This document shows positions 2,077 to 63,807 of a stretch of DNA of 64,000 nucleotides, piece after piece (the first letter of the stretch is position 1; each line of letters starts with the position of its first letter). The notes under the pieces are model-generated. The model searched no databases and was not told where the DNA came from. It worked only from the letters and a program-made list of their open reading frames with translations. The stretch is from Patescibacteria group bacterium (GTDB taxonomy: Bacteria; Patescibacteriota; Patescibacteriia; UBA2196): assembly GCA_028748975.1 (NCBI GenBank), contig JAQTPI010000006.1, forward strand, positions 366-64,365, read 5' to 3'. The translations under genes were made by a program, and so were the position numbers.

Positions 2077-3588
2077 TTACCTCGCGTACTCAATCGTTCT
2101 GGTTTCGCGGATGACATTCACTTTAATTTCACCCGGATATTTCAATTCCTGTTCAATTTTATTGGCGATTTCCCGCGCCAATTTTTGCGCGCCCCAGTCA
2201 TCAATTTTTCCCGGTTCCACAAACACGCGCACTTCCCGGCCCGCCTGAATGGCATAGACTTTTTCCACGCCTTCAAAAGTTTTAGCTGTATCTTCCAGTT
2301 CGGTCAATCGTTGAATATAATTTTCATAACTGTCTTTGCGCGCGCCTGGTCGAGCACCCGAAATGGCGTCCGCCACTTTGGCAATCAAGCCTTCCAAAGT
2401 TGAGGGCTGGTCCAAATGATGTTCGCCCGCCACTTTGGCCACTTCTTCCGGCAAACCGAATTTTTTCAAAATATTATAACCGATTTCCGGGTGCGTTCCT
2501 TCCACCTCGTGGTCCACCGCTTTGCCAATGTCATGCAACAGCCCGGCTTTTTTAGCCAAATTCACATTGGCGCCAAGCTCGGCCGCGAGTAACGCTGAGA
2601 GCTGCGCCACTTCCACGCTGTGCTGTAAAACATTCTGGCCATAAGAAGTGCGGAATCTTAAACGGCCGAGTACTTGAATCAATTTGGGATCAAGTCCGGC
2701 CACGCCTACTTCGTAGGCCGCGTCTTCGCCGGCTTTTTTAATTTCCAAAGCAATCTCTTGTTTGGCCGCTTCAATCGCTTCTTCAATCCGGCCCGGATGA
2801 ATCCGGCCATCAGCGATTAATTTTTCCAAAGCCACTTTGGCCACCTGGCGTCGAATCGGTGAAAATCCGGAAACAATAATACTCTCCGGCGTGTCATCAA
2901 TCACAATATCCACGCCTAATTGCGTTTCCAAAGTTTTAATATTTCTGCCTTCCCGGCCGATAATCCGGCCTTTCATTTCGTCTGAGGGTAAAGTAATCAC
3001 GGTCGTGGTTGTTTCCGCCGCATGGCTGGAAGCACAGCGCTCAATTACCGCGCTCAAAATATGTTTGGCTTCCTTGTTCCATTCTTCCTGTGTTTCATTT
3101 TGAATTTTTCTCACCCGGCTCAACAGTTCTTCTTTGACATCGCGCTCGGTGTTGTCCAAAAGAATTTTTTGCGCCTCTTCCTTGGTTAAGCCGGCGATTT
3201 TTTGCAGTTTTTCCATCTGTTCCTCGCGAATTTTGATTATTTCCGCTTTGGCCGCTTCCAATTTCTCGCCTTTATTCAAAAGTTCTTGCTTCTTATCTTC
3301 AAATTCCAAAAGTTTCTGGTCAAACAACGCTTCGCGTTTTTCCAAACGGCGCTGAATTTCCAAAATTTCCTTGCGGCGCTCGCTTTCTTCGCGCTTGGAT
3401 TCATCAATGATTTTAATGGCTTTTTCTTTGGCTGCCAATAAAAAATCTTTTTCCTTGTTTTTGGCCTCTTCCAAAATTTTCATGGCTCGGGCTTCCGCCG
3501 ATTCGGCATAACGTTTTACCATGTAGCGCCGCACCAAATAGCCGATGCCGAGTCCGACAATCAGTCCGATTAAAGTGCTTAAAAACAT
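2077..3588 (-). CDS. rny: ribonuclease Y
   Basis: N-terminal TM helix, coiled-coil region, KH domain (GREGRNIKTLETQLGVDIVID) and HD domain (LLHDIGKAVDHEVEGTHPEIG). Length 503 aa. Confidence 0.9.
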   Translation of the reverse strand: MFLSTLIGLIVGLGIGYLVRRYMVKRYAESAEARAMKILEEAKNKEKDFLLAAKEKAIKIIDESKREESERRKEILEIQRRLEKREALFDQKLLEFEDKKQELLNKGEKLEAAKAEIIKIREEQMEKLQKIAGLTKEEAQKILLDNTERDVKEELLSRVRKIQNETQEEWNKEAKHILSAVIERCASSHAAETTTTVITLPSDEMKGRIIGREGRNIKTLETQLGVDIVIDDTPESIIVSGFSPIRRQVAKVALEKLIADGRIHPGRIEEAIEAAKQEIALEIKKAGEDAAYEVGVAGLDPKLIQVLGRLRFRTSYGQNVLQHSVEVAQLSALLAAELGANVNLAKKAGLLHDIGKAVDHEVEGTHPEIGYNILKKFGLPEEVAKVAGEHHLDQPSTLEGLIAKVADAISGARPGARKDSYENYIQRLTELEDTAKTFEGVEKVYAIQAGREVRVFVEPGKIDDWGAQKLAREIANKIEQELKYPGEIKVNVIRETRTIEYAR

Positions 3589-3844
3589 AAAAACTCCTCA
3601 AATTCAAAACAGGAACTTAAAAGGAGTTTGGGGGAAATTTTTTAAATTTTCAGCACAGCCAAAAACCGGCCTTAGGCCAACTTTTTTATTTCTAAACTAT
3701 TAAATTCAACGAATAACTTAGTTAAAAAAGTCATAATATCCATCCAAAATTGGGCTAATTTAAGCTGAAATTTCCCCTGACTGCCTCAAAAACCTGTTTC
3801 TAAAATTAATTGATTACCTATTAAGTATAGCACACCTTGCTTTT

Positions 3845-9133: not shown

Positions 9134-10288
9134 ATGTTAGAAATTAATCAACAAATCATCTCCCAAATTGAAAAAGCCCGTCAAATTTTGCTTGTTTTCA
9201 AGAAAAATTGGGAAACTGATTCCGTAGCGAGCGCCTTGGCTCTGTTTTTGTGGCTGAAAAAAACCGACAAACTGGTTGATGTCATGGCTGATGGCTTTAT
9301 AGCGCCGGCTGAATTAAAATTTTTACCCGCTCTTGAAGAAATCAAACCAGAACTTCATAATCTCCAAAAATTTGTTATCAACCTGAAATTAAATCAAAAC
9401 CAAGTTTCCGATTTTGCTTATGACACAGACGGCGATAATTTAAAAATTTTTCTCACGCCCAAAACCGGCGAATTTAAAGAAAGCGATGTCACGGCCGGCC
9501 AAAGCAATTTTCTTTATGATTTAATCATCACTGTGGACACGCCGGACCTTAATTCTTTGGGCGCTATCTATGAAAAAAATCTGGATTTCTTTTTCAACAC
9601 TCCTTTGATTAATTTTGACCACGCCACCGGAAACGAACATTTCGGACAAATTAATCTGATTGATGTCCGCGCCAATTCCACAGCTGAAATTATCTATCAA
9701 TTTCTCCATGACAATTTTTCTGCCAATTTTGATGAAAATATCGCCACCTGCCTGTTGGCGGGTATTATGGGCGCCACCACCGGTTTTAAAACAGGCAACA
9801 TTTCCCCGCAAACCCTGGGTATCACCTCTGAGTTATTGGCCCTTGGCTCCAACCGCGAACAAATTGTCCAAAATCTTTTTCACGCCAAATCACTTTCTGC
9901 TCTCAAACTTTGGGGCCGGCTTTTAGCCCGGCTCCAGCCTGACCGCGCCAATCATTTGGTCTGGTCGCTTCTTTCCTATGATGATTTCATCAAATCCGGC
10001 GCCACGCCCACTGATATCAAAGGCGCAGTCAAAGAATTAGTAACTTCTCTGCCACAGGCGGAAATTATTTTAATTTTGTACGAACAGCCCTCGGGCGAAG
10101 TCGGCACGGAAGCGCTCGCTGTCCACGGCCAGCTTTTCACTTCACCCAATTACAGCGCCCTGGATTTGGTGCGCGCCTTTCGCCCCGCCGGCGACAAAAC
10201 CTTTGCTCATTTTATTATTCCCGAAGCCAAACTCCTGGAGGCGGAGAAAATTATGATTGATGAAATCAGAAAAAAAATTGCGAATTAA
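9134..10288 (+). CDS. DHH-family phosphoesterase-like protein (second NrnA-like paralog)
   Basis: DHH-like motif FDHATGNEHFG and a Gly-rich DHHA1-like segment. 384 aa. Followed by a GC hairpin terminator at 10322-10362. Confidence 0.5.
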   Translation: MLEINQQIISQIEKARQILLVFKKNWETDSVASALALFLWLKKTDKLVDVMADGFIAPAELKFLPALEEIKPELHNLQKFVINLKLNQNQVSDFAYDTDGDNLKIFLTPKTGEFKESDVTAGQSNFLYDLIITVDTPDLNSLGAIYEKNLDFFFNTPLINFDHATGNEHFGQINLIDVRANSTAEIIYQFLHDNFSANFDENIATCLLAGIMGATTGFKTGNISPQTLGITSELLALGSNREQIVQNLFHAKSLSALKLWGRLLARLQPDRANHLVWSLLSYDDFIKSGATPTDIKGAVKELVTSLPQAEIILILYEQPSGEVGTEALAVHGQLFTSPNYSALDLVRAFRPAGDKTFAHFIIPEAKLLEAEKIMIDEIRKKIAN

Positions 10289-10405
10289 TAGCGAATTACC
10301 TGCTAATTTTGCGAATAAAAATCCGCCCCGATGCGCTTTGCGCCATCGGGGCGGATTTGATTAGTCTTATTCGCCTCCATTAGCATTATTAGCAATTATT
10401 AAACT

Positions 10406-12586
10406 TTATTCGTTTTCTATCAAAATTTGATTGCTCTGCTCGCGCCACTGTGTCGCCGGAATAGTCGGATGTACTGTTTGTTTGCCATTCTTTGCCAAAT
10501 CAAATATCTCTTGCGGGGTATAACCGCCATAAATGAAAGCATTAACCACCGCGCCCCAGGAAGTATTTTTCAAGGTTAAAATCTTACCGCCATTCAGCGC
10601 TTTCAGTTCATCTCTTAAAACTATAGCTGCGTTCTCTTCAGTTTTCAAATCACCCAGTCGCGACAAACCGTAAATTTTATTCTTATTAGTGGAAATTTTC
10701 TTGGCTTCCGGCGAGAGCGGACTATAACCGCTTTTAATTTCCGTCAAATCATCAAAGCCGTCGCCATCAGTGTCTTCTTTGTTTAGATCCGTGCCATAAA
10801 GTCCTTCTTGAAAATCAGTCAGGCCATCGCCATCAGTATCAAGTTTGTAATCAACCGCTACTGTTGTTGGTGTTGATGTTTGTGTTGGTGTTGATGTTTG
10901 TGAACCAAGGCTTGGTTTAGTGCCCGAACATAAACTGTCTGCCACCACGCTGCCATTATTGTCTTGGCATCTGACTGCCCAAGAATAAGTGGTATTGGCA
11001 CTGGTACAGCTCTGGCTCGTTGTCGGCTTGGTGTCGAAACATAAACTGTCAGCCGCCGCGGCGCCGGTATTATCTTTGCAAGACACGCTTCTTGTTTGCG
11101 TACTATTGGTGCAAGTTGACCACGCACCCGAAGACCAGGAATAAGTCGTTGTGGTGGTGGTTGAACAACTTTGATTGGTTGTTGGTTTAATGCCGGAGCA
11201 TAAACTGTCAGCCACTGTGGCACTATTTTTATCTTTACAAACCACAGTTCTGGTTTGTGTGTTACTAGAACAGGTTGACCAATCACCCGAGGTCCAAGTA
11301 TAAGTAATTCCAACACCCAAAGTTGATCCTGCCACCCAACTTGTCCAATCAGAGCAACCATTAGAATTGCAGGCTTGAACTTTGGCGCTGTAAGAACGAT
11401 TGGAACTTAAAGGATTAAATGGCGCGCCATAATTAGCTGTGTTAAAAGAAGCGCCAGTTACTTTTTGGGCATCACCTACGCCATCTACTTGGACATAATA
11501 ATATGTGGCACTGCTGACTGCGTCCCAACTCCAAGTAAGGGAAGTGCTGGTTGAACCGGTAGATTTAAAATTGGTGGGTTTATCTGGTTTTGTTGCCCAA
11601 GTCGTCCCGGCCACCCAACTTGTCCAATCAGAACAACCATTAGAATTGCAGGCTTGAACTTTGGCGCTGTAAGAACGATTGGAACTTAAAGGATTAAATG
11701 GCGCGCCATAATTAGCTGTGTTAAAAGAAGCGCCAGTTACTTTTTGGGCATCACCTACGCCATCTACTTGGACATAATAATATGTGGCACTGCTGACTGC
11801 GTCCCAACTCCAAGTAAGGGAAGTGCTGGTTGAATCTGTGGTTTTCAAATTTGTAGGAGATGTAGGAATACTCTCTATTCTTGTCACTTGTTTCACATAT
11901 GAACTGTAAGCAGAACAACCGCCGGTGTTGCAGGCCCTGACTTTTGCCTGATAGTCTGTGTTTGGTTGTAATCCAGAAAAAGTAGCGGATTTAATGGAAG
12001 AAATATTGTCTTCGGTAATTTTTTGTGTTTCATCAAAACCGCCATAAAAAGGCCGGTCCTTAACAACCTCATAATACGTCGCGCCGGACTGCGCGCTCCA
12101 CACCCATTTGATGGAAGTGCTGGTATACTCATCTACTTTCAAATCCGTGGGAGTGGTAGGAGGAGTGGGCGTGGTTACCACTGGCGTTGCTGCCGCTGGC
12201 GTCTGGGCTATATCTGAACTGGCCGAAAAAACAGAACAAATGGCATTGCAAGCTTTAACCCTAGCTATGTATGCTGTATTCGGCTTTAAACCTTTAAATT
12301 CATAAGATGTGACTTTTATATCATTAGCATACAGTGTTTCTGAACCACCAACAGAATATTCCCCAAGATAAACTTCATATCTGCTCGCGCTGGCCACCAC
12401 ATTCCAAGTAAAAGAAATTGAAGTTTCTTTAATTGATTGTGGTTGTATTTGTGGCTTCCCTGGCGCTAGGGGCATAATAATTGCTTTAGCCGAATTTGCC
12501 AACAAAAAAAGCTGACCCGAAGCCAAAGCCAGCGTAAGAGCAAATATCAAAAGACCTTTAAAATTCTTTTGCGCGCGTTTTTTCAT
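10406..12586 (-). CDS. secreted surface protein with fibronectin type III-like repeats, Cys-rich modules and calcium-binding DxDxDG repeats
   Basis: Signal peptide MKKRAQKNFKGLLIFALTLALASG. Repeated ~93-aa FN3-like units, two of them identical. Repeated TWTSGDWSTCS...TQTRTVVCKD modules. DTDGDGLTDFQEG and DTDGDGFDDLTEI thrombospondin-type-3-like Ca-binding motifs. Confidence 0.7.
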   Translation of the reverse strand: MKKRAQKNFKGLLIFALTLALASGQLFLLANSAKAIIMPLAPGKPQIQPQSIKETSISFTWNVVASASRYEVYLGEYSVGGSETLYANDIKVTSYEFKGLKPNTAYIARVKACNAICSVFSASSDIAQTPAAATPVVTTPTPPTTPTDLKVDEYTSTSIKWVWSAQSGATYYEVVKDRPFYGGFDETQKITEDNISSIKSATFSGLQPNTDYQAKVRACNTGGCSAYSSYVKQVTRIESIPTSPTNLKTTDSTSTSLTWSWDAVSSATYYYVQVDGVGDAQKVTGASFNTANYGAPFNPLSSNRSYSAKVQACNSNGCSDWTSWVAGTTWATKPDKPTNFKSTGSTSTSLTWSWDAVSSATYYYVQVDGVGDAQKVTGASFNTANYGAPFNPLSSNRSYSAKVQACNSNGCSDWTSWVAGSTLGVGITYTWTSGDWSTCSSNTQTRTVVCKDKNSATVADSLCSGIKPTTNQSCSTTTTTTYSWSSGAWSTCTNSTQTRSVSCKDNTGAAAADSLCFDTKPTTSQSCTSANTTYSWAVRCQDNNGSVVADSLCSGTKPSLGSQTSTPTQTSTPTTVAVDYKLDTDGDGLTDFQEGLYGTDLNKEDTDGDGFDDLTEIKSGYSPLSPEAKKISTNKNKIYGLSRLGDLKTEENAAIVLRDELKALNGGKILTLKNTSWGAVVNAFIYGGYTPQEIFDLAKNGKQTVHPTIPATQWREQSNQILIENE
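11325..11850. repeat. near-perfect tandem duplication (2 x 279 bp) inside the FN3 surface-protein gene
   Basis: Segments about 11332-11565 and 11611-11844 are identical except for 1-2 nt. They encode a duplicated 93-aa unit. Confidence 0.85.
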
Positions 12587-12716
12587 AGTTTTTGTGTTTA
12601 TTTTTGTTTATTTTTTCGCTAATTTTAGCGAATTATACATTAAGTATAGCAAATTTTTTGCTACTTGTCAAATTAAAAAGCCGTTCTCTGAACGGCTTTT
12701 GTTTTTGATGAGTTTG

Positions 12717-12962
12717 TCAGAAATTATAAATCCGCGTCAAATTGTCAATAAACTGCGCTGGCGGCCATTCCTTGGTGTAACCGCACTGCCGGCAAGTCAA
12801 TTTTATTTTATTACCGGAAATTTCTTCTTCTTCCATTTGTTGTTCGCAATTAAAACAACGGCTCGCTAAATTATAAGATTGGCGTGTGATAAAACAAATG
12901 AAACCCAAAAAAAATACCACCAAAAGAATACCACCAAAAATAATTCCGATTATTCCCCACAT
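12717..12962 (-). CDS. small membrane protein with C-terminal CxxC...CxxC zinc ribbon
   Basis: N-terminal TM helix IIGIIFGGILLVVFFLGFICFI. CFNC...CRQCG motifs. Bidirectional hairpin terminator at 12675-12707. Confidence 0.45.
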   Translation of the reverse strand: MWGIIGIIFGGILLVVFFLGFICFITRQSYNLASRCFNCEQQMEEEEISGNKIKLTCRQCGYTKEWPPAQFIDNLTRIYNF

Positions 12963-13076
12963 TTCTGCCTCCTTTTTTAAATTATCAAAAAATAATAAAA
13001 TATTTTATATCCTTATATCTCCATATCTTTATTTCTAATATTTTTATTTCCCTTATTACTAGTTACTAGTTACTTA

Positions 13077-13769
13077 TTACCAATTTTTTTTCACCAACCC
13101 CTTTTCCGCCGCGTCCATCTGCGCTTCTTGTTTGGAAGTGCCCTCGCCTTTAGCCACCAATTCTTCTTCCAGATAAACTCCGATGATAAATTTCTTGTTA
13201 TGATCCGGGCCGGATTCAGAAATCACCTGATATGACGGCGTCACCCCGACTTTGTCTTGCGCCATTTCCTGAAAACGCGACTTGGCGTCAATATAAAGTT
13301 TATGTTTCAAAATATCCGGCAATTTCACCAAAATATTTTTGATAATAAATTTTTTAGCGGTATCCCAACCCAAATCCAAATAAATCGCGCCGATCACCGC
13401 TTCCATGGCGTTGGCAATAATGTAACCGCGCGCTTTCTGATTTTTATCTTTGGCTTCGCCGCGCGACAAAAATAAAAAATCATCCAATTCCAGTTCCTTG
13501 CCGATTTCCGAAAGCATCTTGGCGTTGACCAAAGCCGCCCGCCAGTTTGTCATCTCACCCTCGGGATTATTAGGATAATTTTCATATAAATTTTCCGTCA
13601 CGATTAATTCCAAGACCGCGTCGCCCAAAAATTCCAGCCGTTCATTGTGTTCCATTTTTAAAGACGGGTGCTCGTTCAAATATGACCGGTGCGTCAGCGC
13701 CTGTTTCAAAAGTTCCGGATGTTTAAAATTAACTTTTAAAATTTCTTCCAATTTGGAAATGTCTTTCAT
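13077..13769 (-). CDS. rnc: ribonuclease III
   Basis: RNase III signature ERLEFLGDAVLELIVTENLY plus a C-terminal dsRBD. 230 aa. Confidence 0.9.
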   Translation of the reverse strand: MKDISKLEEILKVNFKHPELLKQALTHRSYLNEHPSLKMEHNERLEFLGDAVLELIVTENLYENYPNNPEGEMTNWRAALVNAKMLSEIGKELELDDFLFLSRGEAKDKNQKARGYIIANAMEAVIGAIYLDLGWDTAKKFIIKNILVKLPDILKHKLYIDAKSRFQEMAQDKVGVTPSYQVISESGPDHNKKFIIGVYLEEELVAKGEGTSKQEAQMDAAEKGLVKKNW

Positions 13770-13890
13770 AAAATTTTTTAGTCCATCCTGACTTCTCGCC
13801 TTTCTAATTTATTTCATCAAAAAATAAAAAGGCGAGAAGGAAGGATCCCGTGGCCAACGGGAAAAATTAATGATTTTAATGATTTTAATA

Positions 13891-14376
13891 TTATTCGCCC
13901 AAATTCGACTGGGGCCCTTCGCTTTCGCTCAGGGCAGGCTCAGTAACTTTTATCTCTCCCTTCGCTTCCATCTCCCCATAAATCGCGCCCAAAACTCCAT
14001 TGACAAATTTGCCTGAAGATTCACCGCCAAATGTTTTGGCCATTTCAATCGCCTCATTAATCACCACTTTCGGCGGTACGTCGCTAGCGGCAAATTTCAA
14101 TTCATAAATTCCCAGGCGCAGCACGTTTCTGTCCACCACCGTAATTTTATCAAGAGGCCACTCCGGCGCGAATTTAATTATAATTTCATCAATCGCTTTG
14201 ATGTTTTTTACCACGCCTTTGACCAAACTTTCCACAAAAGAAATGTCTTCCAACCCGGCCGCCTGTTCTTTAATATTGTAAGTCAAAACCTCATTTAATT
14301 TTTCTGAATGGTGATTAAAATCCCACTCATAGAGCGTTTGCATGGCAATAGTTCTGGATAGGTGTCTGTTGGGCAT
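13891..14376 (-). CDS. nusB: transcription antitermination factor NusB
   Basis: NusB-like N-terminus ([13 protein letters not shown]) and all-helical body. Start moved to the internal ATG at 14376. The 45-codon upstream extension of the ORF-track call lies inside a MITE-like repeat (14386-14540). Confidence 0.75.
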
Positions 14377-28599: not shown

Positions 28600-28803
28600 A
28601 AACGGGTAATAAGTAATAAGTAACTAGTAATCAGGGGCGACGTTGCGACCATCTCCCCCTTAACAAGGGGGAGAGCGAGGGGGTAGATCGCCGATAGGCG
28701 AATATAATTATTTTTCTCCCTTTACTCTACCTTAATTTTCTAATAAAATCAAATAAAAAAGGCTGAGAACTTGACTCAGCCATAAATATCTACCAAACAA
28801 ACC

Positions 28804-29091
28804 TTAAAGCTCTAACGGATAAATTTGTATGTGATAAATCCATAAATTGGAAAAAATAATTTTCCATTCAAACATGTCCTGCCAACCAGGCCTTGATTTT
28901 TTAAACTCTTCTACTAGCTTCCAAATGTTTTCTCTATTTAAAAGTTCCTTTGCTTCTTTTTCCGCTTCTTCCAAATTTTTTGCTTTCAATGGCACCGTCA
29001 TTCCGTCTGGTTCACCCTTTATTAAATCTGCCTGGCGATTTTTGAAAGACCATTTAACCGTAAATTCAAGTTTCCATCCCGGCATTTCCAT
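28804..29091 (-). CDS. hypothetical protein (95 aa)
   Basis: Intact ORF downstream of the Ubl terminator. No family recognised. Confidence 0.35.
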   Translation of the reverse strand: MEMPGWKLEFTVKWSFKNRQADLIKGEPDGMTVPLKAKNLEEAEKEAKELLNRENIWKLVEEFKKSRPGWQDMFEWKIIFSNLWIYHIQIYPLEL

Positions 29092-29145
29092 TTATTCCTC
29101 CTTGGTTAATTTGTGTATCCTCATCTTATCTTAAGAAAAAAACAT

Positions 29146-29190
29146 TGTCAAATAAAAAATAAAAACGCCGATCACTGGTGTGATCGGCGT
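29146..29190 (-). terminator. rho-independent terminator of the Ubl gene
   Basis: Perfect hairpin CGCCGATCAC-ACCAG-TGATCGGCG followed by TTTTTATTTTTT on the minus strand. Confidence 0.8.
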
Positions 29191-29210
29191 AACTTGAACG
29201 GCTGGTATGT

Positions 29211-29507
29211 CTACCGGCCGTTGCCCTTGATGAATTTCGTCATGATGACGGTGTCGTTGGCCGACACGGGCTGGTCCAGCATCGCCATCTTGGTCTAGTC
29301 GACGAGGGTCGTATTCCACCGCAGTTCAAACTCGTCGCCACGGCCGACTACCGGCAGGTCGATTTGTTCTTTCGGCCCGCGGGCGGTATTGGCCACTTCG
29401 ATCGCTTCGCGCAGTGTCGTTCCTTCTTCCACATTGACTTCGGTCAGTCGTCCCGGGAATTTCCCCAGACGCATCGGAAAGTACCCGTATGTCCCTGTTT
29501 TCGTCAC
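29211..29507 (-). pseudogene. MoaD/ThiS-like ubiquitin-like beta-grasp protein interrupted by an in-frame TAG (29295-29297); 70 aa before the stop, 98 aa if read through
   Basis: RBS AAGGAGG then GTG at 29507. LTEVNVEEGTTLREAIEVA matches the MoaD/ThiS core. After the TAG the same frame continues with TKMAMLDQPVSANDTVIMTKFIKGNGR, which matches the MoaD C-terminal strand (xDGDxVxxxPPVSGG-like). Segment GC is about 58%. Confidence 0.55.
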
Positions 29508-29635
29508 TGTGAACCTCCTTGGTTTCCTGTTCTTGTTTGACCTCCCCAACACCACCCAATTTCTATTAATTTGCCTCTGTCATTCCCCCTTTCTTGGGCT
29601 AAGATGAGGATTTTAGATTATTTTTATTTTTGGCT

Positions 29636-29737
29636 AAAAATTAAGGCTCCACTTCACCTTAGCGTAATAAAAAAAACTTGTCAAATATTAATTAAGGTTC
29701 TACTTTACCCTAGCGCAGTAAAAAAAGTTTGTCAAAC
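29636..29737 (-). promoter_or_regulatory. two tandem copies of the cluster-specific promoter/leader module upstream of the Ubl gene
   Basis: On the minus strand: TTGACA-N17-TAAGGT and TTGACA-N17-TAGGGT, each followed by the conserved GAACCTTAA leader box. Confidence 0.55.
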
Positions 29738-30463
29738 AATGGTAAACTTTCGGCTATAAATTTGGGTCAGAGGACGCAGACCGAAAATCATCTCATTTTC
29801 CAATTCATCCTCTTCACCATCCAAAATGCTTTGCCAGCGCATCATCTGCCAGATTGCCAGACCGGACAAAATGTCCGAAGTCGGACCCACGCTGGGTTCA
29901 GACCGGCAGACAGAAGGAGTGGCATCTTCATCGGTATAATGCAGTGTCTCTTCATAACCTGCGACGTGAGCCGGATTAATGGGATTGACAACGTAAATTC
30001 TGCCCTGGTCAGCGCCCATTCTGGTTTCAATCACCAGTTTGACATTGGGTTTGTATTTCAACGAACCATTCCAAATGTCCACGCGGGATTTCATGGTGTC
30101 GGTTAAGACGAAAACCACCTCTCCCAAAGTTTGGATACCGTCCACGAATTCGTCGTGAATGGTAATTTCGGTTCCGGTTTTCAAGCGGATCCATTCCCGC
30201 ATAGCCTCAATTTTTTTCTTGCCTACATCGCTTGGAAAAAACCTGGTGTTGGGCACGTTATGGTCCACCACCACGTCTGTGTCATAAAGCTCGATATTGG
30301 GTACGCCCAGTTCGGCCACGCCCAGGGCCGCTTTGGAACCAGTGGATCCACTGCCAATTATGGTCACGAGTTTCTCACCGAATTTATAGGGTGAAAACAC
30401 ACCCAAATGTCTGTTAACATCAAGAATTATTCTTGGTGTTGGTGTCGCTGTTGTTTCCGGCAC
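29732..30463 (-). CDS. E1-like ubiquitin-activating enzyme family protein (ThiF/MoeB/HesA fold, minimal 243 aa)
   Basis: RBS AAGGAGG and GTG start. Gly-rich Rossmann loop IIGSGSTGS, LYDTDVVVDHNVPNTRFF (DxDxVxxxN.R motif), and a C...GVxGP-like catalytic loop VCRSEPSVGPTSDILSGLA. Confidence 0.7.
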   Translation of the reverse strand: MPETTATPTPRIILDVNRHLGVFSPYKFGEKLVTIIGSGSTGSKAALGVAELGVPNIELYDTDVVVDHNVPNTRFFPSDVGKKKIEAMREWIRLKTGTEITIHDEFVDGIQTLGEVVFVLTDTMKSRVDIWNGSLKYKPNVKLVIETRMGADQGRIYVVNPINPAHVAGYEETLHYTDEDATPSVCRSEPSVGPTSDILSGLAIWQMMRWQSILDGEEDELENEMIFGLRPLTQIYSRKFTIV

Positions 30464-30495: not shown

Positions 30496-31380
30496 TTAAT
30501 CGTATATGGTATTGTCTTCAAAACTGCCGCTTTTGTCAGCCAGATTGGTTCCTTGCTGAAAACCAACGGCCGCGGGGTCAGTACCGTAAGAACTGGTTTG
30601 ATAATACGGATAAACCGTTACTGGTTCCGGTTCTTTAATCACAATCTTATCTTTGATTACCTGCTGCCAATATTCGCGGCGAGCCGGATCAATCGGTTGG
30701 CGTTTGCCCAAAACTTCCCAAGGCGCATCCTCAATCAGTAAATTTTCTTCTATTAAATACAGGGTTACTTGCATCCGGCCGTCTTTATTAAAAATACACC
30801 GGATAAAATGGTCGTAGCAGTCCCCGACAAACTCATCCATTTGGTCCTCGTCCGGTCCGCTGGCAAATGTTCCCATATGAACATGGCAATGACCCCAATA
30901 GCGGATGGAGTTAAAAATCTCCGCGCCATTGGGACGGGTCAATATTTCTTGGGTAACCAACTCAGCTTGTCCACCCGGAGTCAGCTTGCATTCCGAACCG
31001 TGCACCTCTTGCCCGGGCACAAAAATCTCCTTGATGAAAAAATCTTGGCCCCGTTTCTCCACCCAACCCAAATTGCCGATTTCCACCCTCATTAAATCGG
31101 CCAGAATGAACTGGTCGTTGATAACGGTGGGGTCAAAATAGGTTATGGGAATATGCACATTTTGCGGCGGTGCGATAAAACTCACTTTTGGCACAAATTC
31201 ATGCTGTTTAAAATCTTTGGTCTTCCTGAATTTCTTTCGCCAACCCTTCCAGGTTCCTTTTTTCCAGGTTCCCTTGGTCCCGCCGCTTCCGACATAAATA
31301 ATTTTAGGCTCCTCTATTTTTTGTTCCGGTTTTGCCATCTCTGGTTTTGGGTCTGTCGCCACTTTGTCGGGCTTTGTCAT
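30496..31380 (-). CDS. JAB/MPN(+) domain metalloprotease (JAMM isopeptidase-like) with basic N-terminal extension
   Basis: Complete JAMM motif: upstream Glu (GQEVHGSE), then HCHVHMGTFASGPD, which is HxHx7Sx2D. 294 aa. Confidence 0.7.
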   Translation of the reverse strand: MTKPDKVATDPKPEMAKPEQKIEEPKIIYVGSGGTKGTWKKGTWKGWRKKFRKTKDFKQHEFVPKVSFIAPPQNVHIPITYFDPTVINDQFILADLMRVEIGNLGWVEKRGQDFFIKEIFVPGQEVHGSECKLTPGGQAELVTQEILTRPNGAEIFNSIRYWGHCHVHMGTFASGPDEDQMDEFVGDCYDHFIRCIFNKDGRMQVTLYLIEENLLIEDAPWEVLGKRQPIDPARREYWQQVIKDKIVIKEPEPVTVYPYYQTSSYGTDPAAVGFQQGTNLADKSGSFEDNTIYD

Positions 31381-31474: not shown

Positions 31475-33445
31475 TTATTTTTTTGCCTTTTCTACAATTG
31501 GCCAGTTATCAATATGCTGGCCCATGGGATCGTTATAATTCGCCGATTCCAAAAAAACAATGCACATAATCAATAATGGCATGAAATCAAAACGGGCAAT
31601 CAATTGCGGTAAAACTTCTTCCATCTCGGCGCCCAGACAGGCATGGCCATCCTCAAATACGTGGGGAGCATTGTGTCCGCCTATCTTTTGCGTCAAATTA
31701 AAAAATCTGATTTGGTTGCAATCGCCATTAAGCGGAATAACAATCCGGAAAGCGCCAATCAAGTGTATTTGGTCTTTTCTCGGATGTTTGCAGAATAAAA
31801 TATCAGTATCCACTATTAACTGGTTTTTGATGCAGCTGACTTTTCTTATCTTTTCCAATTGCCGCATTTTTTCAAAATCAATGGCAAATTGCTTCCGGTA
31901 AACTCCGCCATCCTTCTTCTTGCCATCCGCCACCTCTTTTAAGGCATCGTATTTTCTAATCGCGGTCACCAGTTGGATTTGCAAACTGTTTACCCGGTTG
32001 GCCACTTCCGTCAATTCTTCCTTGGCGTCCTTAATAATTGACTCTTTATTTTGCAGACAAGTGTTGGCGTAGGCCTGTCCTTGTGCTGTCCGCATCTTGG
32101 CTTCCTGTTTTTGTCTTTCCGCTGTTGTGCTTGTTAAAAGACTGGCCACGGCTTGCATCAACTTTTTAAAAATCTTTTTATATTCTTCGTCCGCTCCCAA
32201 AATAGGGAAGGGAATATAAAGATTTCTGCCCGCTATGATTTGTCCGGCCTCTTGGCCGTCCTCATCATATATTATTTTCCCTTCGTTGGTAATCTGAAAA
32301 GATCCGCTTTTGGTTGGCAGAGGAATTCTCCAAAGCTGTTTGGGTGTTAAAAACCCCTGTCTGATGCTTTCCGTTGGCGCGGCAAAAAAATAAATATGAA
32401 ACATGTTGTCATAGCGCGGCAGGTCTCTCATCCGAAACTCGCCTCCGCCGTTATGCAAACAGATGCTCCGCCTAATCTTTGTCATTAATTCCCGGCTGAT
32501 GATGGGCGCGTAAACACGCCTGACTAATTCCAGCTCTCTGCTGTTAAAACCCCCAGAATCAATTACCATCGACCTGTCTATCTCTATGCCCTCCAGTTTT
32601 TTGGAGTCTTTCTTTTTTTCCGGTTCCACTGCTTTAACTGGCCGCCGAAACCTTTTCAGTTGGGAAAAAACTTCCGGCGCCACCACCGCTTCCAGAATTT
32701 TTCTAAAAATAGTAAGTTCTGACTCGCGGCCATAATGACACAGGTCGTGAAAAATATAAAGAGTGTTTTCGCCCACCAGCTCGGCCACCGCATATCTTTT
32801 GTCTCTAATCACTATGCCTTGGCCGCTGGGTGCGAAAGATTCATCATCACAAGCCACCCTTGTTCCCCAAATCTTCTCAGGTGTCTGGGTTTCCGTGTCA
32901 CCGCTTTCTGACGGGGCCGACCAAATGCGGATATGGAAAACATCGCCTTCAGCCGGGCTGGTATGTTTTCGATGCGGCACGCTGATGACAATTTCTGTTC
33001 CAATTTTTGGTAAAAGAATTTCTTTGGCTAATTTACGAAATCGGCTGCTGCCCTCGCCGTTCCAATCTTTGATTTTCACCTGGCAATCAGCGCCTCTGTC
33101 TTTTTTTGAATTATCAAAAATTACTCTTTGTATGATTCTTTTTTGTTCCTTGGTGATGGCCGAAGTGTTTTTCCACCATTTTAAATCATCGCCCTTGGCA
33201 TATTCCGGATCCAAACCGGTTATCTCCGCAATCTCCAGTTTAAAAACTCCGGTGATCTCGGTTGGTAATTCTGCCAAACTCATTTTTTTTAGGGCTCTTA
33301 ATCCCTGGCTTAACTGTGTTTCGTCCAAAACAATGCCTTTTTTACTGCCCATCTCAAAGTCGGCAAAAATGACCTTTTGGGCATTTAAAGCCGCTTTTTT
33401 ACTCTCGTCAATAGCTGGCAAAAAATAATTTCTCACCACTTCCAT
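31475..33445 (-). CDS. large paralog 1 (656 aa): internal duplicated domain, coiled coil, C-terminal UBC/E2-like domain with putative catalytic Cys (GHACLG)
   Basis: RBS AAGGAGG. C-terminal FRIVIPLNGD...IRFFNLTQKIGGHNAPHVFEDGHACLG...LLIMCIVFLESANYNDP aligns with the UBC-fold pattern F.L.I.FP.DYP...HPN...G.ICLDIL...LLSICSLL.DPNPDDP. Confidence 0.6.
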   Translation of the reverse strand: MEVVRNYFLPAIDESKKAALNAQKVIFADFEMGSKKGIVLDETQLSQGLRALKKMSLAELPTEITGVFKLEIAEITGLDPEYAKGDDLKWWKNTSAITKEQKRIIQRVIFDNSKKDRGADCQVKIKDWNGEGSSRFRKLAKEILLPKIGTEIVISVPHRKHTSPAEGDVFHIRIWSAPSESGDTETQTPEKIWGTRVACDDESFAPSGQGIVIRDKRYAVAELVGENTLYIFHDLCHYGRESELTIFRKILEAVVAPEVFSQLKRFRRPVKAVEPEKKKDSKKLEGIEIDRSMVIDSGGFNSRELELVRRVYAPIISRELMTKIRRSICLHNGGGEFRMRDLPRYDNMFHIYFFAAPTESIRQGFLTPKQLWRIPLPTKSGSFQITNEGKIIYDEDGQEAGQIIAGRNLYIPFPILGADEEYKKIFKKLMQAVASLLTSTTAERQKQEAKMRTAQGQAYANTCLQNKESIIKDAKEELTEVANRVNSLQIQLVTAIRKYDALKEVADGKKKDGGVYRKQFAIDFEKMRQLEKIRKVSCIKNQLIVDTDILFCKHPRKDQIHLIGAFRIVIPLNGDCNQIRFFNLTQKIGGHNAPHVFEDGHACLGAEMEEVLPQLIARFDFMPLLIMCIVFLESANYNDPMGQHIDNWPIVEKAKK

Positions 33446-33601: not shown

Positions 33602-35563
33602 TTATTTTTGTTCCGTAACTATTGGCCAGTCCGCCACCCGCTCTCCGGCGCTCGCCTGGCCCTCTGCCGTTTCCAGAAAAATAAGACACATGGTTATCAA
33701 TGGTCCAAAATCAAACCGGGCGATTAATTGCGGTAAGATTTCTTGCAGCTGGCTGCCAAAGTAAGCCTGGCCATCCGGCGCCACGTTGGGAGCATTAAAT
33801 TCGTTAACCCGCCGTGTCAGATTAAAAAATCTGATATCCTCGCAATTGCCCCAAAAAGGGATAAAAATCTGGAAAGCGCCAATCAGGCGTGTTTCTTTTT
33901 TGCTGTAGAAAAGAGTGTTGGTCTCCACTATAAGACAATCCGGGGTGAAAGTAATCTGCCTTATCTTTTCCAGTCGCCCCATTTTCTCAAAATCAGCGCT
34001 AAACTTCTCTTGGTCGCCACCCTTTCTTTTGCCCTCGGTTGCTTCCTTCAGCGCATCATGCTTTCTGATGGCCGCTATCAACTGTGTTTGAAAATTTTTG
34101 ATTTGCCTGGTAATATCCACAAACTCAGCCGCGGCATCTTTCTTGATCAAATCTTTATACTGCCAACAAATGGCGGCATAAGCTTTTCCTTTGGCTGCCC
34201 GCATTTCTTCTTCCCACTGCTGCCTTTCCGCTGCCGTACTGGTAAAAAGCCTGGCCACTTCTGCCATTAAACAGGTAAAAATCCGTTGCAATGTTTTTTG
34301 GTCGGAAAATAAAAAAAATGGAATATAAAGATTTCGGCCGCCGATAATTTGCCCGACTCTTTGTCCAGCATCATCATAAACCATTACCCCTTCCCTGGTA
34401 ATCGGGCAAGGGTTATTCCCGGCCGGCAAACTAATGCCCCATAATTTATTTGATGAAGAAAATTGTCTGCCCGCCATTGAATTGGTAAAAAATATATGAA
34501 ACACCTCGTCATAAAAAGGTAATGGCTGTTGTCTTATGCTCCTATTTTTATGCAGGCAAACGCCGCGCTTAATTTTTGCCATTAATTCCCGCGCGATAAT
34601 TGGAGCATAAACTTTTCTAGCCAAAGCGCATTCTTCTGAGCTAAACCCCGGTAATTCCATCGTCAGTGTTTTATTTATATCTATTTTTTTGCTTTCCAAT
34701 TCTTTTGATTTTGTTTCTTTTTTTACTGGAGCTGGCCGCCGAAACCTTTTCAGTTGGGAAAAAACTTCCGGCGCCACCACCGCTTCCAGAATTTTTCTAA
34801 AAATAGTAAGTTCTGACTCGCGGCCATAATGACACAGGTCGTGAAAAATATAAAGGGTGTTTTCGCCCACCAGCTCGGCCACTGCGTAGTTGTTTGTCTT
34901 GTCTTTAATAACTAGGCCAAGGCCGCTCGCTGGAAAAGATGCGTCACCGCAAGCCACTTCTGTTCCCCAGATAGTTGGGGGTGTGCGAACCTCTCTGGAT
35001 CCGCTCTTCAATGGTGCCGACCAGATGTAGATATAAAAATTATCATCTGCAACCGGTTCTTTTTGGTCTCCATGTGGCACGCTGATAAAAATGTTTGTTT
35101 TAATTCTGGGCCAAAGAATTTCTTCGGCTAGCTGGCAATAATCTTCGCTGTTACTGCGTCCGTCCCAATGATCAACTGTCACAAAACCCGACCCATCCTC
35201 CTCTTCTATTGTTTCTTCTTTTTTCAAACTCTCACCAATCTTTTCCTGTAAAAATCTCCGTTGCTCTGCCGCCAGGGTGTAGCTATTTTTGCACCACCTC
35301 AAATCATCGCCTTGGGCATATTCCGGATCCGCCCCTGTGATGTCAATGGTCAAAAGCTTGAAAGCTCCCTCAATCCCGGTGGACAGTTCCGCCAAGATTG
35401 CTTTGTTTAAAGCTCTCAATCCCTGAAGTAATTGGGTTTCGTCCAAAATAATGCCCTGTTCGCCTCCCAGTTCAAAATCGGCAAAAATGACCTTGTGGGC
35501 GTTTAAAGCTGTTTTTTGTGCCGCATTGACAGCTGCTAAAAAATAGCTTCTGACAACTTCCAT
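33602..35563 (-). CDS. large paralog 2 (653 aa): same architecture, E2-like active-site Cys/His replaced (DGQAYFG)
   Basis: 52-aa block identical to paralog 1. C-terminal domain is present but lacks the Cys and the NYNDP motif. Confidence 0.6.
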   Translation of the reverse strand: MEVVRSYFLAAVNAAQKTALNAHKVIFADFELGGEQGIILDETQLLQGLRALNKAILAELSTGIEGAFKLLTIDITGADPEYAQGDDLRWCKNSYTLAAEQRRFLQEKIGESLKKEETIEEEDGSGFVTVDHWDGRSNSEDYCQLAEEILWPRIKTNIFISVPHGDQKEPVADDNFYIYIWSAPLKSGSREVRTPPTIWGTEVACGDASFPASGLGLVIKDKTNNYAVAELVGENTLYIFHDLCHYGRESELTIFRKILEAVVAPEVFSQLKRFRRPAPVKKETKSKELESKKIDINKTLTMELPGFSSEECALARKVYAPIIARELMAKIKRGVCLHKNRSIRQQPLPFYDEVFHIFFTNSMAGRQFSSSNKLWGISLPAGNNPCPITREGVMVYDDAGQRVGQIIGGRNLYIPFFLFSDQKTLQRIFTCLMAEVARLFTSTAAERQQWEEEMRAAKGKAYAAICWQYKDLIKKDAAAEFVDITRQIKNFQTQLIAAIRKHDALKEATEGKRKGGDQEKFSADFEKMGRLEKIRQITFTPDCLIVETNTLFYSKKETRLIGAFQIFIPFWGNCEDIRFFNLTRRVNEFNAPNVAPDGQAYFGSQLQEILPQLIARFDFGPLITMCLIFLETAEGQASAGERVADWPIVTEQK

Positions 35564-35795: not shown

Positions 35796-37790
35796 TTAGC
35801 TGGTTTTGCGTTTTCCTTTGTCCGCTTCCTCTTGTCCTGTTTTTACCAGCGGCCATTGATCAACATGTCTGCCGATATCATCAAGGTTCGCTGATTCCAA
35901 AAAAATAATGCACATAATAACAATTGACGTGAAATCAAAACGAGCCATCAGCTCTGGTATAATTTCATGCATCTCCCTGCCCAGACAGGCATGGCCGTCA
36001 GCATATACGTGGGGAGCGTTCATTCGGCTGTCATGCGCATTAATCAGCTGTGTCAAGTTAAAAAATCTGAGATCATTGCAGCTGCCCTTAAAAGGAATAA
36101 CGATCTGAAAAGCGCCGATCAGGCGTATTTCTTTATTAGTAGGGTGCTGGTAATAAAGAATATCAGTCTCCACAATCAGGTGGGTCTTGGTGAAAGAAGC
36201 CCATCTTATCTTGTCCAGTTGCCCTATTTTCTCAAATTCAGCGGCAAATCTCTCTTGATATAATTCTTTGCCCTCCTTTTTGTCCTCAACTACTCCTCTT
36301 AAAATATCCTGCCTTCTGTTGGCCGCTACCAATTGCGTTTGCAGATTTTTTATTTGGCTACCAGTCTCAGTCAGTTCCTGGCCGGCAGTTTCTTTTTTAA
36401 TTTTGGCAAGAATCGCCTCTTTGTAGTTTTGGCAAACACGAGCATAAGTTATTTTTTGAATTGCCATCAGCCCGGCTTCCCGCTGCTGCCTTTCGGCCGC
36501 CGTGCTCTTTAAAAGCCAGTTTACTTCTTCCAATAAACGAATAAAAAACTCTTTGTTTTCTTTGGTCTCAAAAGTTAAATAAAAAGGAAGGTAGAGATTG
36601 TTGCCATTAATGAGCCAAGCCACGACTTGGCCTTGGTTGTCATAAATCGCCCTTCCCTTGTTTAAGATCACTAGGGAGTTCTTGGGGTTATCCAATTTTA
36701 TGTTGATTCCCCAAGGCGTCGGTGGACTCAATGGCGCGTTTTTAATTGCCAGTCCCGGCGAGGCTCCCAAAAAAACATGGAACATATTATCATAAAAAGG
36801 CTGAGTTTTTTTGCCAAATTCCCCGCCATGTAAACACACGTTTCTTTTAATGACTGGGGTCAGCACCTGTTTAACTATCTTGGCTGCTTCTCCGTAAAGT
36901 CTTTCAAAAAAAATTCGTGAAGAAAAATCATTTGCGCCAGCTATGAAAACTTCTTGATCCAACCAATCAGCTGGTTTTTTTTCTTTTTCTTTCACTGCCA
37001 AGGCCTCAATAATAGCCATGGTTCTGGCGATTCCCTCTTCAAATATTCTTAACTCGTTTTCATCCCCGTTGTGGCTACAAATATCATGATGAAAATACAA
37101 ATTATTCATGCCGATTAATTCGGCTACCGCGTAGCCCGTGGCTTCATCCACCAGCGAAACTCCCAGACCACTGTCCACCGTACCAATACCACGATCTGAC
37201 ACTTCAATTCCCCAAATACTCTCCGGGGGACTCTTTGTGTTATGGCTTCCGCAACTGGGAGCGGCATGAAGGTGGATATAAAAATCCGAACCCAAAATCG
37301 GATCTGTCCAACCAGATTGTTTATGGATCTGGACCTTCTTTTTTATTTTTGGAGTTATGTTCTTCATTGCCAGCCGGGTAAAAGAATTGTCATCCGGCCA
37401 TTTCCGCCAATCTTGCCGAGCCGCCTTAATCCAATTTATTTCTCCTTCTCGCTCTTGTTCCGGCGGACATAAATAATTAAATAATAATTCCTTTGCCGCC
37501 TCCGGAATCTTCAAAATATTTTTGTACCAGTTCAATTCCTCTCCGGCTTCATAACCAGCATCGGGTTCCATCGGAACTAACAGAGTTTGATAAACTCCTC
37601 TCGCCCCAGTTGGTTGTTCCCAAAGTATGGCTTTTCGCAGCCGCAGTAAACAATGTTTAATTTGTGTCTCCTCAACCAAAATTTTTTGTCCATCTCCTGG
37701 TGTGACTCTGGAAAATTTCACGCCCTGCTGGGTTAAAAATGCCTCTTCCTCTCTGGTTACCATTAAAAGGAATTTTTTTGGTTCTTCCAT
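35796..37790 (-). CDS. large paralog 3 (664 aa): divergent member with intact E2-like motif NAPHVYADGHACLG...FLESANLDD
   Basis: Colinear with paralogs 1 and 2 at about 35-40% identity outside the conversion tract. Same promoter/leader module upstream. Confidence 0.6.
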   Translation of the reverse strand: MEEPKKFLLMVTREEEAFLTQQGVKFSRVTPGDGQKILVEETQIKHCLLRLRKAILWEQPTGARGVYQTLLVPMEPDAGYEAGEELNWYKNILKIPEAAKELLFNYLCPPEQEREGEINWIKAARQDWRKWPDDNSFTRLAMKNITPKIKKKVQIHKQSGWTDPILGSDFYIHLHAAPSCGSHNTKSPPESIWGIEVSDRGIGTVDSGLGVSLVDEATGYAVAELIGMNNLYFHHDICSHNGDENELRIFEEGIARTMAIIEALAVKEKEKKPADWLDQEVFIAGANDFSSRIFFERLYGEAAKIVKQVLTPVIKRNVCLHGGEFGKKTQPFYDNMFHVFLGASPGLAIKNAPLSPPTPWGINIKLDNPKNSLVILNKGRAIYDNQGQVVAWLINGNNLYLPFYLTFETKENKEFFIRLLEEVNWLLKSTAAERQQREAGLMAIQKITYARVCQNYKEAILAKIKKETAGQELTETGSQIKNLQTQLVAANRRQDILRGVVEDKKEGKELYQERFAAEFEKIGQLDKIRWASFTKTHLIVETDILYYQHPTNKEIRLIGAFQIVIPFKGSCNDLRFFNLTQLINAHDSRMNAPHVYADGHACLGREMHEIIPELMARFDFTSIVIMCIIFLESANLDDIGRHVDQWPLVKTGQEEADKGKRKTS

Positions 37791-62439: not shown

Positions 62440-63807
62440 CTATTTATTATAAATTTTTTGTTTAAGCAGAGTAATATCCTGTTTAATTTTATTATCATGG
62501 TTTAAAGCTTCTTTAATTTTATCGCAAGCATGAATGACGGTGGTGTGATCGCGGCCGCCCAGTTCGTTGCCAATATTAATATAAGACGCTCCCACCTCTT
62601 CCCGCATCAAATACATGGCGATTTGGCGCGGCATCACCAGTTCTTTTTTGCGGCAAGCGCCGGTTAAATCCGATAGTGAGGTGTCAAAAAATTCCGAAAC
62701 CGACTGTAAAATAGATTTAGTGGTTAAAGAACTTCGGGGAGTAATGGTATTAATGGACTGCAGTACGCTTTTTACTTCTTCCAGAGTTGGCTTATGCTGG
62801 CTCAATTGAAAGCGGGCGTAAATATGGTTGAGAGCCCCTTCCAATTCGCGGATATTGCTTTGGATGTTTTCCGCCAGATAATCAATAATTTCACGGTCTA
62901 AAGAAAAATTTTTATCAATTAATTTTTGCTGTAAAATTGCCACCCGGGTTTCATAGTCTGGCTCGGAAATGTCGGCAATCATGCCCCATTCAAAACGCGA
63001 CTGCAATCTCTGTTCCAGATTATTAATGGCTTTGGGCGGCCGATCCGAAGAAAGAATAATTTGTTTGTCTTTTTGGTACAGATCATTAAAGGTGTGAAAA
63101 AATTGTTCTTGCGTCTGTTCTTTGCCCGCCATAAACTGAATATCATCAATAATTAAAAAATCAATACTGCGGTATTTGTGCTGGAATTCGGTGATTTTAT
63201 TGGCGCGCAGCGCCCCGATAAATTCATTGGTAAATTTTTCGCAAGTTAGATAGTTTAGTTTGCAATTGGGGTTGTTTTTTAGAACTTCCTGGCCAATGGC
63301 CTGTAAAAGATGGGTTTTACCAAGCCCTGCCCGGCCATAAATGAAAAGCGGGTTATAGGCTTTGCCCGGTGTTTTTACCACCGCCCTGGCTGCGGCGTGA
63401 GCCAGTTCATTGTTTTTTCCCACAATAAATTTATCAAAAGTATATTTTGGATTAAGTCCAAAAGGATTGTTGGAAACCTCTATTTCTTGACTTTCTGCTT
63501 CAAATTTGTTGATATTTCTGATTTTTTCCTTCAAATTTACTATGTTTTTTGGTTTTGCACTGGTTTCTACCCGATAAAACACTTGACGTAATTTATTGTT
63601 TGTGATGTGTTTCAAAGCCTCCACAATCTTTTCTTGATACTTGTTTTCCATCCAGGCTTTGGTAAATTCATTAGGCACACCAACAACAACATTATCTTCT
63701 TCTTGAGAGATAATAAAAGTGTTTTTAAACCAAGTTGTAAAATTGGCCTTGGATAAGGACAATTCCAGTTCTCCTAAAATTGCCTGCCAAAGTTGTTCGT
63801 TGGTCAT
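62440..63807 (-). CDS. dnaA: chromosomal replication initiator DnaA
   Basis: AAA+ domain GRAGLGKTHLLQAIG and a C-terminal DnaA-box-binding HTH. 455 aa. Confidence 0.95.
   Translation of the reverse strand: MTNEQLWQAILGELELSLSKANFTTWFKNTFIISQEEDNVVVGVPNEFTKAWMENKYQEKIVEALKHITNNKLRQVFYRVETSAKPKNIVNLKEKIRNINKFEAESQEIEVSNNPFGLNPKYTFDKFIVGKNNELAHAAARAVVKTPGKAYNPLFIYGRAGLGKTHLLQAIGQEVLKNNPNCKLNYLTCEKFTNEFIGALRANKITEFQHKYRSIDFLIIDDIQFMAGKEQTQEQFFHTFNDLYQKDKQIILSSDRPPKAINNLEQRLQSRFEWGMIADISEPDYETRVAILQQKLIDKNFSLDREIIDYLAENIQSNIRELEGALNHIYARFQLSQHKPTLEEVKSVLQSINTITPRSSLTTKSILQSVSEFFDTSLSDLTGACRKKELVMPRQIAMYLMREEVGASYINIGNELGGRDHTTVIHACDKIKEALNHDNKIKQDITLLKQKIYNK

Follow-up and report, generated by a model that had tools for sequence, protein, structure and literature searches.

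The Type II BilABCD (bacterial ISG15-like) ubiquitination operons have the gene order Ubl-E2-DUB-E1 and encode a multidomain E1 with an IAD-AAD-CYS architecture, and their JAB peptidase removes a short tail from the ubiquitin-like protein (Ubl), exposing a conserved Gly before adenylation by the E1 (Chambers et al., PMC10557695). In the Bub (6E/DUF6527) operons a JAB peptidase also exposes a conserved Gly before E1 adenylation, the E2s lack the catalytic Cys and use Ser, a DUF6527 serine protease (BubE) is present, and components occur as fusions (Ubl-E2, JAB-E1 or E2-E1) (Ye et al., PMC11601596).

We describe here an operon of E2-like, JAMM, E1 and Ubl genes in an uncultivated Patescibacteria lineage, in which the frame of the Ubl gene is interrupted by a TAG codon. 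The stretch analysed (the window) is 64 kb long; all coordinates refer to it, and the features described are on its minus strand unless stated otherwise. An earlier note, made from the sequence of the window, had listed recent pseudogenisation, a sequencing error and programmed readthrough as candidate explanations for the TAG. We regard it as highly probable that the TAG at 29297-29295 is a very recent one-base nonsense mutation, a C-to-T transition that turned a Gln codon (CAG) into TAG in the Ubl gene of the operon.

Organization of the operon

The neighbours of the Ubl gene are the E2-like, JAMM and E1 genes, ychF, and the rpsF-ssb-rpsR group. At the end of the window there is a dnaA gene (62440-63807), and the Ubl locus is thus within ~35 kb of the probable replication origin region. 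The E1-like gene (29732-30463) encodes a 243-aa ThiF-family adenylyltransferase (Pfam ThiF, E = 5e-12) that matches the PADLOC E1-E2 (Cap2-type) models with E-values down to 1e-10; in the PADLOC search no Bil-type model was matched, and the only hits were to these Cap2-type models and, faintly, to E2 models.

Adjacent to the E1-like gene is a gene (30496-31380) for a 294-aa putative JAMM/JAB-like metallopeptidase. Its residues H164-x-H166-x7-S174-x2-D177, together with upstream Glu residues, are invariant across five JAMM-like homologues, two of which have weak matches to Prok-JAB (E about 0.01). The window protein itself has no Pfam match, and because a sequence search of solved structures (PDB) gave nothing meaningful, the JAMM assignment is based on the motif and the weak Prok-JAB matches. 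The window protein and its relatives on contigs L001, L004, L005 and L007 all have the complete HxHx7Sx2D plus Glu signature, and together they look like a divergent JAB family for which there is no model.

Upstream of the JAMM-like gene are three paralogous genes for large proteins, arranged in tandem. Paralogue 1 (31475-33445, 656 aa) has a C-terminal E2-like domain (NAPHVFEDGHACLG); paralogue 2 (33602-35563, 653 aa, 53% identical to paralogue 1) has a replacement of the putative catalytic Cys (NAPNVAPDGQAYFG), and paralogue 3 (35796-37790, 664 aa, 38% identical to paralogue 1) retains it (NAPHVYADGHACLG). The C-termini of all three share the motifs NAPHVxxDGHACLG and FLESANxxD, and the PADLOC E2 matches of the E2-like protein are faint (E = 0.019 and 0.034). 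An hhalign comparison with a UBE2D2 sequence places APHV..G.ACLG on HPNI..GSICLD of UBE2D2 (E = 0.034), such that the C-terminal motifs fall on HPN...C and PNPDD of the E2 enzyme. An AF2 model of the E2-like domain made from a shallow alignment is of low confidence (pLDDT 62), and Foldseek matches to this model are not significant, with Atg10, UbcH7, Ubc13 and BilB among the top twelve. We tentatively assign the C-terminal domain of the large proteins as a likely E2. The middle paralogue, which lacks the Cys (AYFG), is reminiscent of the UEV-type inactive E2s. The N-terminal regions of the three paralogues, each ~500 aa long, have no Pfam match.

Like the Bil operons, this operon has four components – a Ubl, an E2 (here a putative one), a JAB/JAMM peptidase and an E1. 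In both, the tail that comes after the conserved Gly of the Ubl is short and varies in sequence, tandem beta-grasp Ubls occur, and the structure of BilA (8tyx) is among the fold matches of the Ubl discussed below. It differs from Bil in its minimal E1, a 243-aa protein that consists of one ThiF domain, and in its gene order (E2-like, JAMM, E1, Ubl). Further differences are that the E2-like domain is at the end of a ~650-aa protein present as three paralogues, and that the Ubl has the tail motif K-G-N, in which the Gly is followed by an Asn that is nearly invariant. With the Bub operons it shares a small E1-like adenylation domain of the homodimer type, architecturally diverse Ubls, and a JAB peptidase that here presumably yields the mature Ubl from a precursor; in contrast to Bub, the genes are separate and the Cys is retained in E2-like paralogues 1 and 3. 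No Pfam match to DUF6527 was found in the Ubl, the E1, the JAMM-like protein, the three E2-like paralogues or the flanking ORFs that were scanned. Judged by its sequence, the operon appears to resemble Bil/Bub-type ubiquitination while lacking defining features of both.

Structure of the interrupted Ubl gene

A ribosome binding site (AAGGAGG, 29520-29514) is located upstream of a GTG start codon at 29507-29505, from which 70 codons (VTKTGTYGYF...RWNTTLVD) are read to the TAG at 29297-29295. Beyond this TAG the frame is open for a further 27 codons (TKMAMLDQPVSANDTVIMTKFIKGNGR) up to a second TAG at 29213-29211. The coordinates and the translation of the split frame given in the earlier note were all reproduced when the minus strand was read again. 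The 70 codons and the premature TAG (29295-29507) correspond to beta1-beta2-alpha1-beta3-beta4 of the predicted beta-grasp fold, and the untranslated remainder (29211-29294), consisting of the 27 codons and the original TAG, encodes a short helix, the last beta-strand, a FIKGN motif and a GR tail, and is the same as in an intact 98-aa allele (P0216) described below. The public annotation (NCBI) contains the 70-aa piece only, as the hypothetical protein MDD5290128.1 (PHT40_02950; P0002 in our set). We found no slippery sequence around GTC GAC TAG ACC, and programmed frameshifting was discarded as an explanation.

A tentative promoter for the Ubl gene was identified by eye at 29656-29684, with TTGACA (29684-29679) and TAAGGT (29661-29656) separated by a 17-nt spacer. 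It is under the threshold of the consensus scan, with a -10 hexamer that matches at three of six positions, and is similar to a neighbouring promoter found by the scan (TTGACA-17-TAAGAT, 29151-29123). The purine-rich 5’ leader, which includes the ribosome binding site (29508-29640), is ~90% conserved relative to the contigs L001 and L002 that carry an orthologous locus, and relative to L001 its conservation exceeds that of the first 15 codons, the coding N-terminus being divergent. The Rfam scan had no match on the leader itself and its folding energy is not in excess (z = 0.30), and on these two results we rejected a regulatory RNA in this segment. On the 3’ side there is an intrinsic terminator (29165-29190), a hairpin with an 11-bp stem followed by a T-run, that is also conserved in L001 and L002. 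Since the Ubl gene is the last one of the cluster and seems to be served by a separate promoter and terminator, no polar effect of the TAG is expected.

Several minor features were noted at this end of the cluster. The Ubl gene is located at a local peak of G+C content (51-57% across 29100-29550); the value is ~35-45% on either side of it and ~43-48% elsewhere in the operon. The promoter of the type TTGACA-17-TAAGAT noted above belongs to a 95-aa ORF (28804-29091) that lies between the Ubl terminator and ychF. This ORF has a weak match to Pfam DUF6065 (E = 0.001, below the cut-off) and is present in the window and in the same-strain contigs L003 and L129; in L001 an unrelated sequence of similar length takes its place (3381-3788). 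On the plus strand, Rfam reports a match to the Bacteroides sRNA BTnc060 at 29054-29194 (E = 9e-4). Its 37 bits are far below the gathering score of 229, and it is most likely due to chance; the match overlaps the AT-rich promoter and terminator region.

Intact alleles and orthologues

The Logan contig L129 (run SRR22315506, 1205 bp) corresponds to window positions 28671-29875 and is identical to it at 1204 of 1205 bases. The sole mismatch is at 29297, within the premature amber codon (29295-29297), where the coding strand has C in L129 (CAG, Gln) and T in the window (TAG). The protein encoded by L129 (P0216) is 98 aa long and 100% identical to the joined translation of the window with Q at the position of the stop; it is the second member of the 90%-identity cluster to which the 70-aa product belongs. 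The TAG allele is present both in the NCBI MAG and in the Logan assembly of run SRR22315508 (contig L003, 100% identical over 3825 bp). The strain was found only in these two runs, SRR22315506 with CAG and SRR22315508 with TAG, which are probably sibling samples given that their accession numbers are adjacent.

A more distant comparison gives the same result. The joined 98-aa product aligns with an intact 101-aa orthologue (P0001) over 99% of its length with 71% identity (E = 3.6e-39). P0001 is encoded on two Logan contigs, L001 and L002, which have ~82% nucleotide identity to the window and the same gene order, with a large protein, a ~291-aa protein, a 243-aa ThiF protein and the Ubl. When the codons are aligned, the TAG of the window faces CAG (Gln) in L001 and L002, and the final TAG and the terminator are conserved. 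The matches to P0001 and P0216 show that the joined frame is a genuine Ubl gene and not a chance open frame, and the comparison with orthologous loci that the earlier note proposed gives CAG and an intact gene in each of L001, L002 and L129. Further alleles were found neither by an E1-based scan nor by a 26-mer scan of genome contigs; a 17-mer scan of metagenome contigs gave chance matches only, this word being too short for a collection of that size.

Because an otherwise identical contig from the adjacent-numbered run still has the intact gene, the TAG is best explained as an ordinary nonsense change. Downstream of the TAG there is no secondary decay, either as frameshifts or as further stops, and since all 27 codons are identical to those of the intact allele the mutation must be very recent. 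The dN/dS ratios of the window relative to L001 are 0.13 for the E1, 0.20 for the JAMM-like protein, 0.19 for the C-terminal part of the E2-like protein and 0.15 for the Ubl core before the stop, indicating that the operon, in which the genes next to the Ubl gene are intact, has been under purifying selection. We also considered an old pseudogene with relaxed constraint, and the post-TAG codons do have a dN/dS of 0.96 relative to L001, on only 13 changes; at the informative sites of this segment the window retains the family-consensus residues, and the test is moot because these codons are the same as in the intact allele of L129. The undecayed remainder of the gene and the intact allele in the adjacent-numbered run thus point to a segregating loss-of-function polymorphism, not an old pseudogene. 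As in an ordinary amber pseudogene, a single C-to-T change creates the stop, an intact allele and an orthologue are available for comparison, and an essential part of the protein is lost; unlike in a fixed pseudogene, secondary decay is absent and one base in 1205 differs from the intact allele.

With one base separating the alleles, the T at 29297 might instead be an error, or a minority variant that was made the consensus, in an organism that truly has CAG. The MAG and L003 may stem from the same reads, in which case their agreement would not be independent. A run-specific error is nevertheless unlikely, since the NCBI MAG and the Logan assembly both carry the TAG: two different assemblers gave T at a site that is neither homopolymeric nor repetitive (GTCGACTAGACC), and L003 runs for 3985 bp without interruption across it. 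Short-read assemblies seldom contain consensus errors of this type, and we consider such an artefact improbable. Among the three explanations first put forward, recent pseudogenisation is thus supported by the single mismatch in 1205 bp and by the CAG of the orthologue, sequencing error is unlikely, and programmed readthrough, to which we return below, is not supported.

The Ubl family and its predicted fold

Relatives of the Ubl were collected by means of a profile search and of a full HMMER scan in which P0001 was the query, yielding about 90 relatives (93 proteins compared). These (P0003-P0013 and P0136-P0215) are either single domains of 68-88 aa or contain two to four tandem repeats (poly-Ubl). 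Nearly all of the proteins, and all of the internal repeats, finish with (I/V)(K/R)G(N/A). In about half of the proteins nothing follows this motif (...KGN), and the others extend for another 1-5 residues or, rarely, ~20. In the alignment Gly95 is invariant and Asn96 near-invariant, and both are encoded after the TAG in the window, as FIKGN-GR. The 70-aa P0002, ending in ...TTLVD, is the only one of the 93 that is truncated before the motif. The earlier note had named, as a finding that would speak against a split gene, an independent short Ubl of ~70 aa in orthologues, with a C-terminal Gly of its own; no such protein is seen among the 93, and as the window product lacks the Gly and is the lone truncated member, we rejected this reading.

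An AF2 model of the intact orthologue P0001 (30-sequence alignment, pLDDT 80.5) has a beta-grasp fold, with beta1 at residues 12-20, beta2 at 24-30, alpha1 at 35-46, beta3 at 63-67, beta4 at 70-72, a helix at 74-81 and beta5 at 89-94. The TAG corresponds to Q74 of P0001, and the helix, beta5 and the tail are therefore all lost. Both the alignment and the model thus bear out the earlier proposal that the full beta-grasp exists only in the joined product, with the helix, beta5 and the invariant Gly all located past the stop; a conserved C-terminal Gly that could be exposed is likewise present in the 98-aa reading and absent from the 70-aa product. Foldseek searches of the PDB with the P0001 model match SUMO2/3, ubiquitin, ISG15 and the bacterial Bil Ubl BilA (8tyx), with E-values of ~1e-3 and a probability of 1.0. 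The predicted fold places the Ubl among the ubiquitin-type modifiers, as opposed to the sulfur carriers ThiS and MoaD. Its first description as a MoaD/ThiS-like beta-grasp protein was thus correct as to the fold but imprecise in the label, the best structural matches being SUMO, ubiquitin, ISG15 and BilA.

The pairing of a beta-grasp protein with a ThiF-type E1 is also a feature of the archaeal SAMP/UbaA/HvJAMM1 system and of ThiS/MoaD, but the proteins of those systems end in Gly-Gly and need no E2, whereas the tail here is KGN-GR. Some relatives of the Ubl have faint precomputed Pfam matches to ThiS and SAMP2; the window Ubl has no ThiS or MoaD Pfam match, and there are no thiamine or molybdopterin genes near it.

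From the GNGR tail the earlier note had suggested JAB-dependent maturation or a non-canonical tail. Maturation of this kind fits the family pattern, with the K-G-N motif, variable tails of 0-5 residues, poly-Ubl precursors and an adjacent JAMM gene, and we infer it from these features. The terminal Asn is either a P1’ cap taken off by the JAMM peptidase or the mature C-terminus. The latter case would be chemically unusual among Ubls; for comparison, the substrate of the ThiF-like MccB is the Asn at the C-terminus of MccA.

TAG as a stop codon and alternative readings of the split frame

Among 58 long non-overlapping ORFs in the window, TAA is used as the stop codon 45 times, TGA seven times and TAG six times. 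The genes ending in TAG include infB, ruvC, dnaA, an ftsK-like gene and a VanW-domain gene, and the products of the first three align up to the very ends of their NCBIfam profiles (IF-2, 581/587; RuvC, 155/161; DnaA, 437/437). The use of TAG as a stop at infB, noted earlier, thus extends to ruvC and dnaA, in each case at the normal C-terminus, and the natural stop of the intact Ubl gene is also TAG. No tRNA with a CUA anticodon is present in the 64-kb window, in which the tRNAs are tRNA-Glu and tRNA-Leu. Genome-wide reassignment of TAG and pyrrolysine insertion were both rejected on these grounds and because the orthologous residue is Gln; as far as the 64 kb of sequence can tell, this organism neither reassigns TAG nor has a TAG that is leaky in general.

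It could still be proposed that this one amber codon is decoded at a useful rate, in a programmed or conditional manner, to give the full 98-aa Ubl; the decoder could be a near-cognate tRNA-Gln, a host suppressor or the amber-suppressor tRNA of a TAG-recoded phage. Near-cognate or phage TAG-to-Gln suppression inserts Gln, and Gln is indeed the ancestral residue, but amber codons arise by mutation most often from CAG, and Gln at this site is therefore expected by chance. Likewise, the perfect preservation of the downstream codons, which could speak for readthrough, is explained equally well by the recency of the change. Conservation of the stop, as expected of recoding, is not seen: L129, L001 and L002 have CAG and no other truncated member was found in the family, such that the intact codon occurs in the same strain background as well as in the orthologue. 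In addition, TAG is the ordinary stop of essential genes here and the window contains no suppressor tRNA. With a stop that varies even within one strain, readthrough of either the programmed or the conditional type is unsupported, and we judge it very unlikely.

A further possibility is a naturally split Ubl, in which the 70-aa fragment and a 25-aa peptide initiated at an ATG at 29288 (MAMLDQ...FIKGNGR) reassemble non-covalently and keep some function. The ATG is two codons past the TAG, the ORF from it (29211-29288) has the whole C-terminal motif, and complementation of split ubiquitin is known in principle. No Shine-Dalgarno sequence precedes the ATG, however, no other family member is split, and the coexistence of the intact allele means that nothing points to an evolved split arrangement; this reading is even harder to credit than readthrough. 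Least probable of all is that the amber allele is a conditional switch, giving full-length Ubl with Gln only when an amber-suppressing tRNA arrives, for example with a TAG-to-Gln recoded phage, although if true it would couple a phage-associated ubiquitin-like conjugation system to infection; TAG-recoded phages have been described (bioRxiv 10.1101/2021.08.26.457843).

Predicted consequences of the nonsense mutation

For the intact allele, a pathway can be proposed by analogy with Bil and Bub. The 98-aa precursor is predicted to fold as a ubiquitin/SUMO-like beta-grasp protein; the JAMM peptidase would trim the short tail after K-G-N, or after the Gly, and the ThiF-type E1 would adenylate the C-terminus so exposed. 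The Ubl would then be passed to the Cys of the E2-like domain and from there to targets; the selection of these targets may lie with the long N-terminal parts of the E2-like proteins.

In the nonsense allele, translation should stop after residue 70 since TAG is a normal stop here, and the product would be without the last helix, beta5 and the tail with the conserved Gly, on which an E1 would depend. Near-cognate readthrough of the TAG would restore Gln, normally at trace levels. Based on the fold and on the conservation within the family, we infer that, save for such traces, the Ubl is non-functional and the pathway disabled in this population.

Taken by itself, the finding is a routine amber polymorphism, and the stop codon is of little weight. 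The public 70-aa entry MDD5290128.1 represents a shortened allele of the 98-aa Ubl, and its annotation should show a disrupted gene, with the 98-aa P0216 as the reference. In this uncultivated Patescibacteria lineage the TAG allele would also amount to a natural knockout of the modifier of a predicted ubiquitin-like conjugation operon, and the frequency of the allele in time-series or sibling metagenomes could show whether the system is costly or dispensable.

Distribution of the gene set

The operon, a poorly described relative of Bil and Bub, is of more interest than the stop codon. The marks of its family are the E2-like domain on a large protein, the JAMM peptidase, the minimal E1 and the KGN-ending Ubl or poly-Ubl, and its range includes CPR bacteria, phage-like contigs and a Dehalobacter-associated prophage-like region. 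It may represent a distinct conjugation family of CPR bacteria and phages with a Gly-Asn-ending modifier, often made as a poly-Ubl precursor. Among the papers covered by a literature search, none was found to describe the operon in CPR bacteria, which is no proof of novelty.

On contigs L004-L006 the set of E2-like, JAMM, E1 and Ubl or poly-Ubl genes is flanked by bacterial housekeeping genes. It is also present on a phage-like contig (L007, Logan SRR29078196, 4943-9090) that encodes DnaB and a PolA with an intein. On a metagenome contig (L128, JGI 3300024253, 10001-14215) it is part of a prophage-like region with HNH, DnaB and primase genes. The gene set is therefore associated with phages or mobile elements as well as being chromosomal in CPR bacteria. 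The Ubl of the prophage-like region is listed by NCBI also from Dehalobacter genomes.
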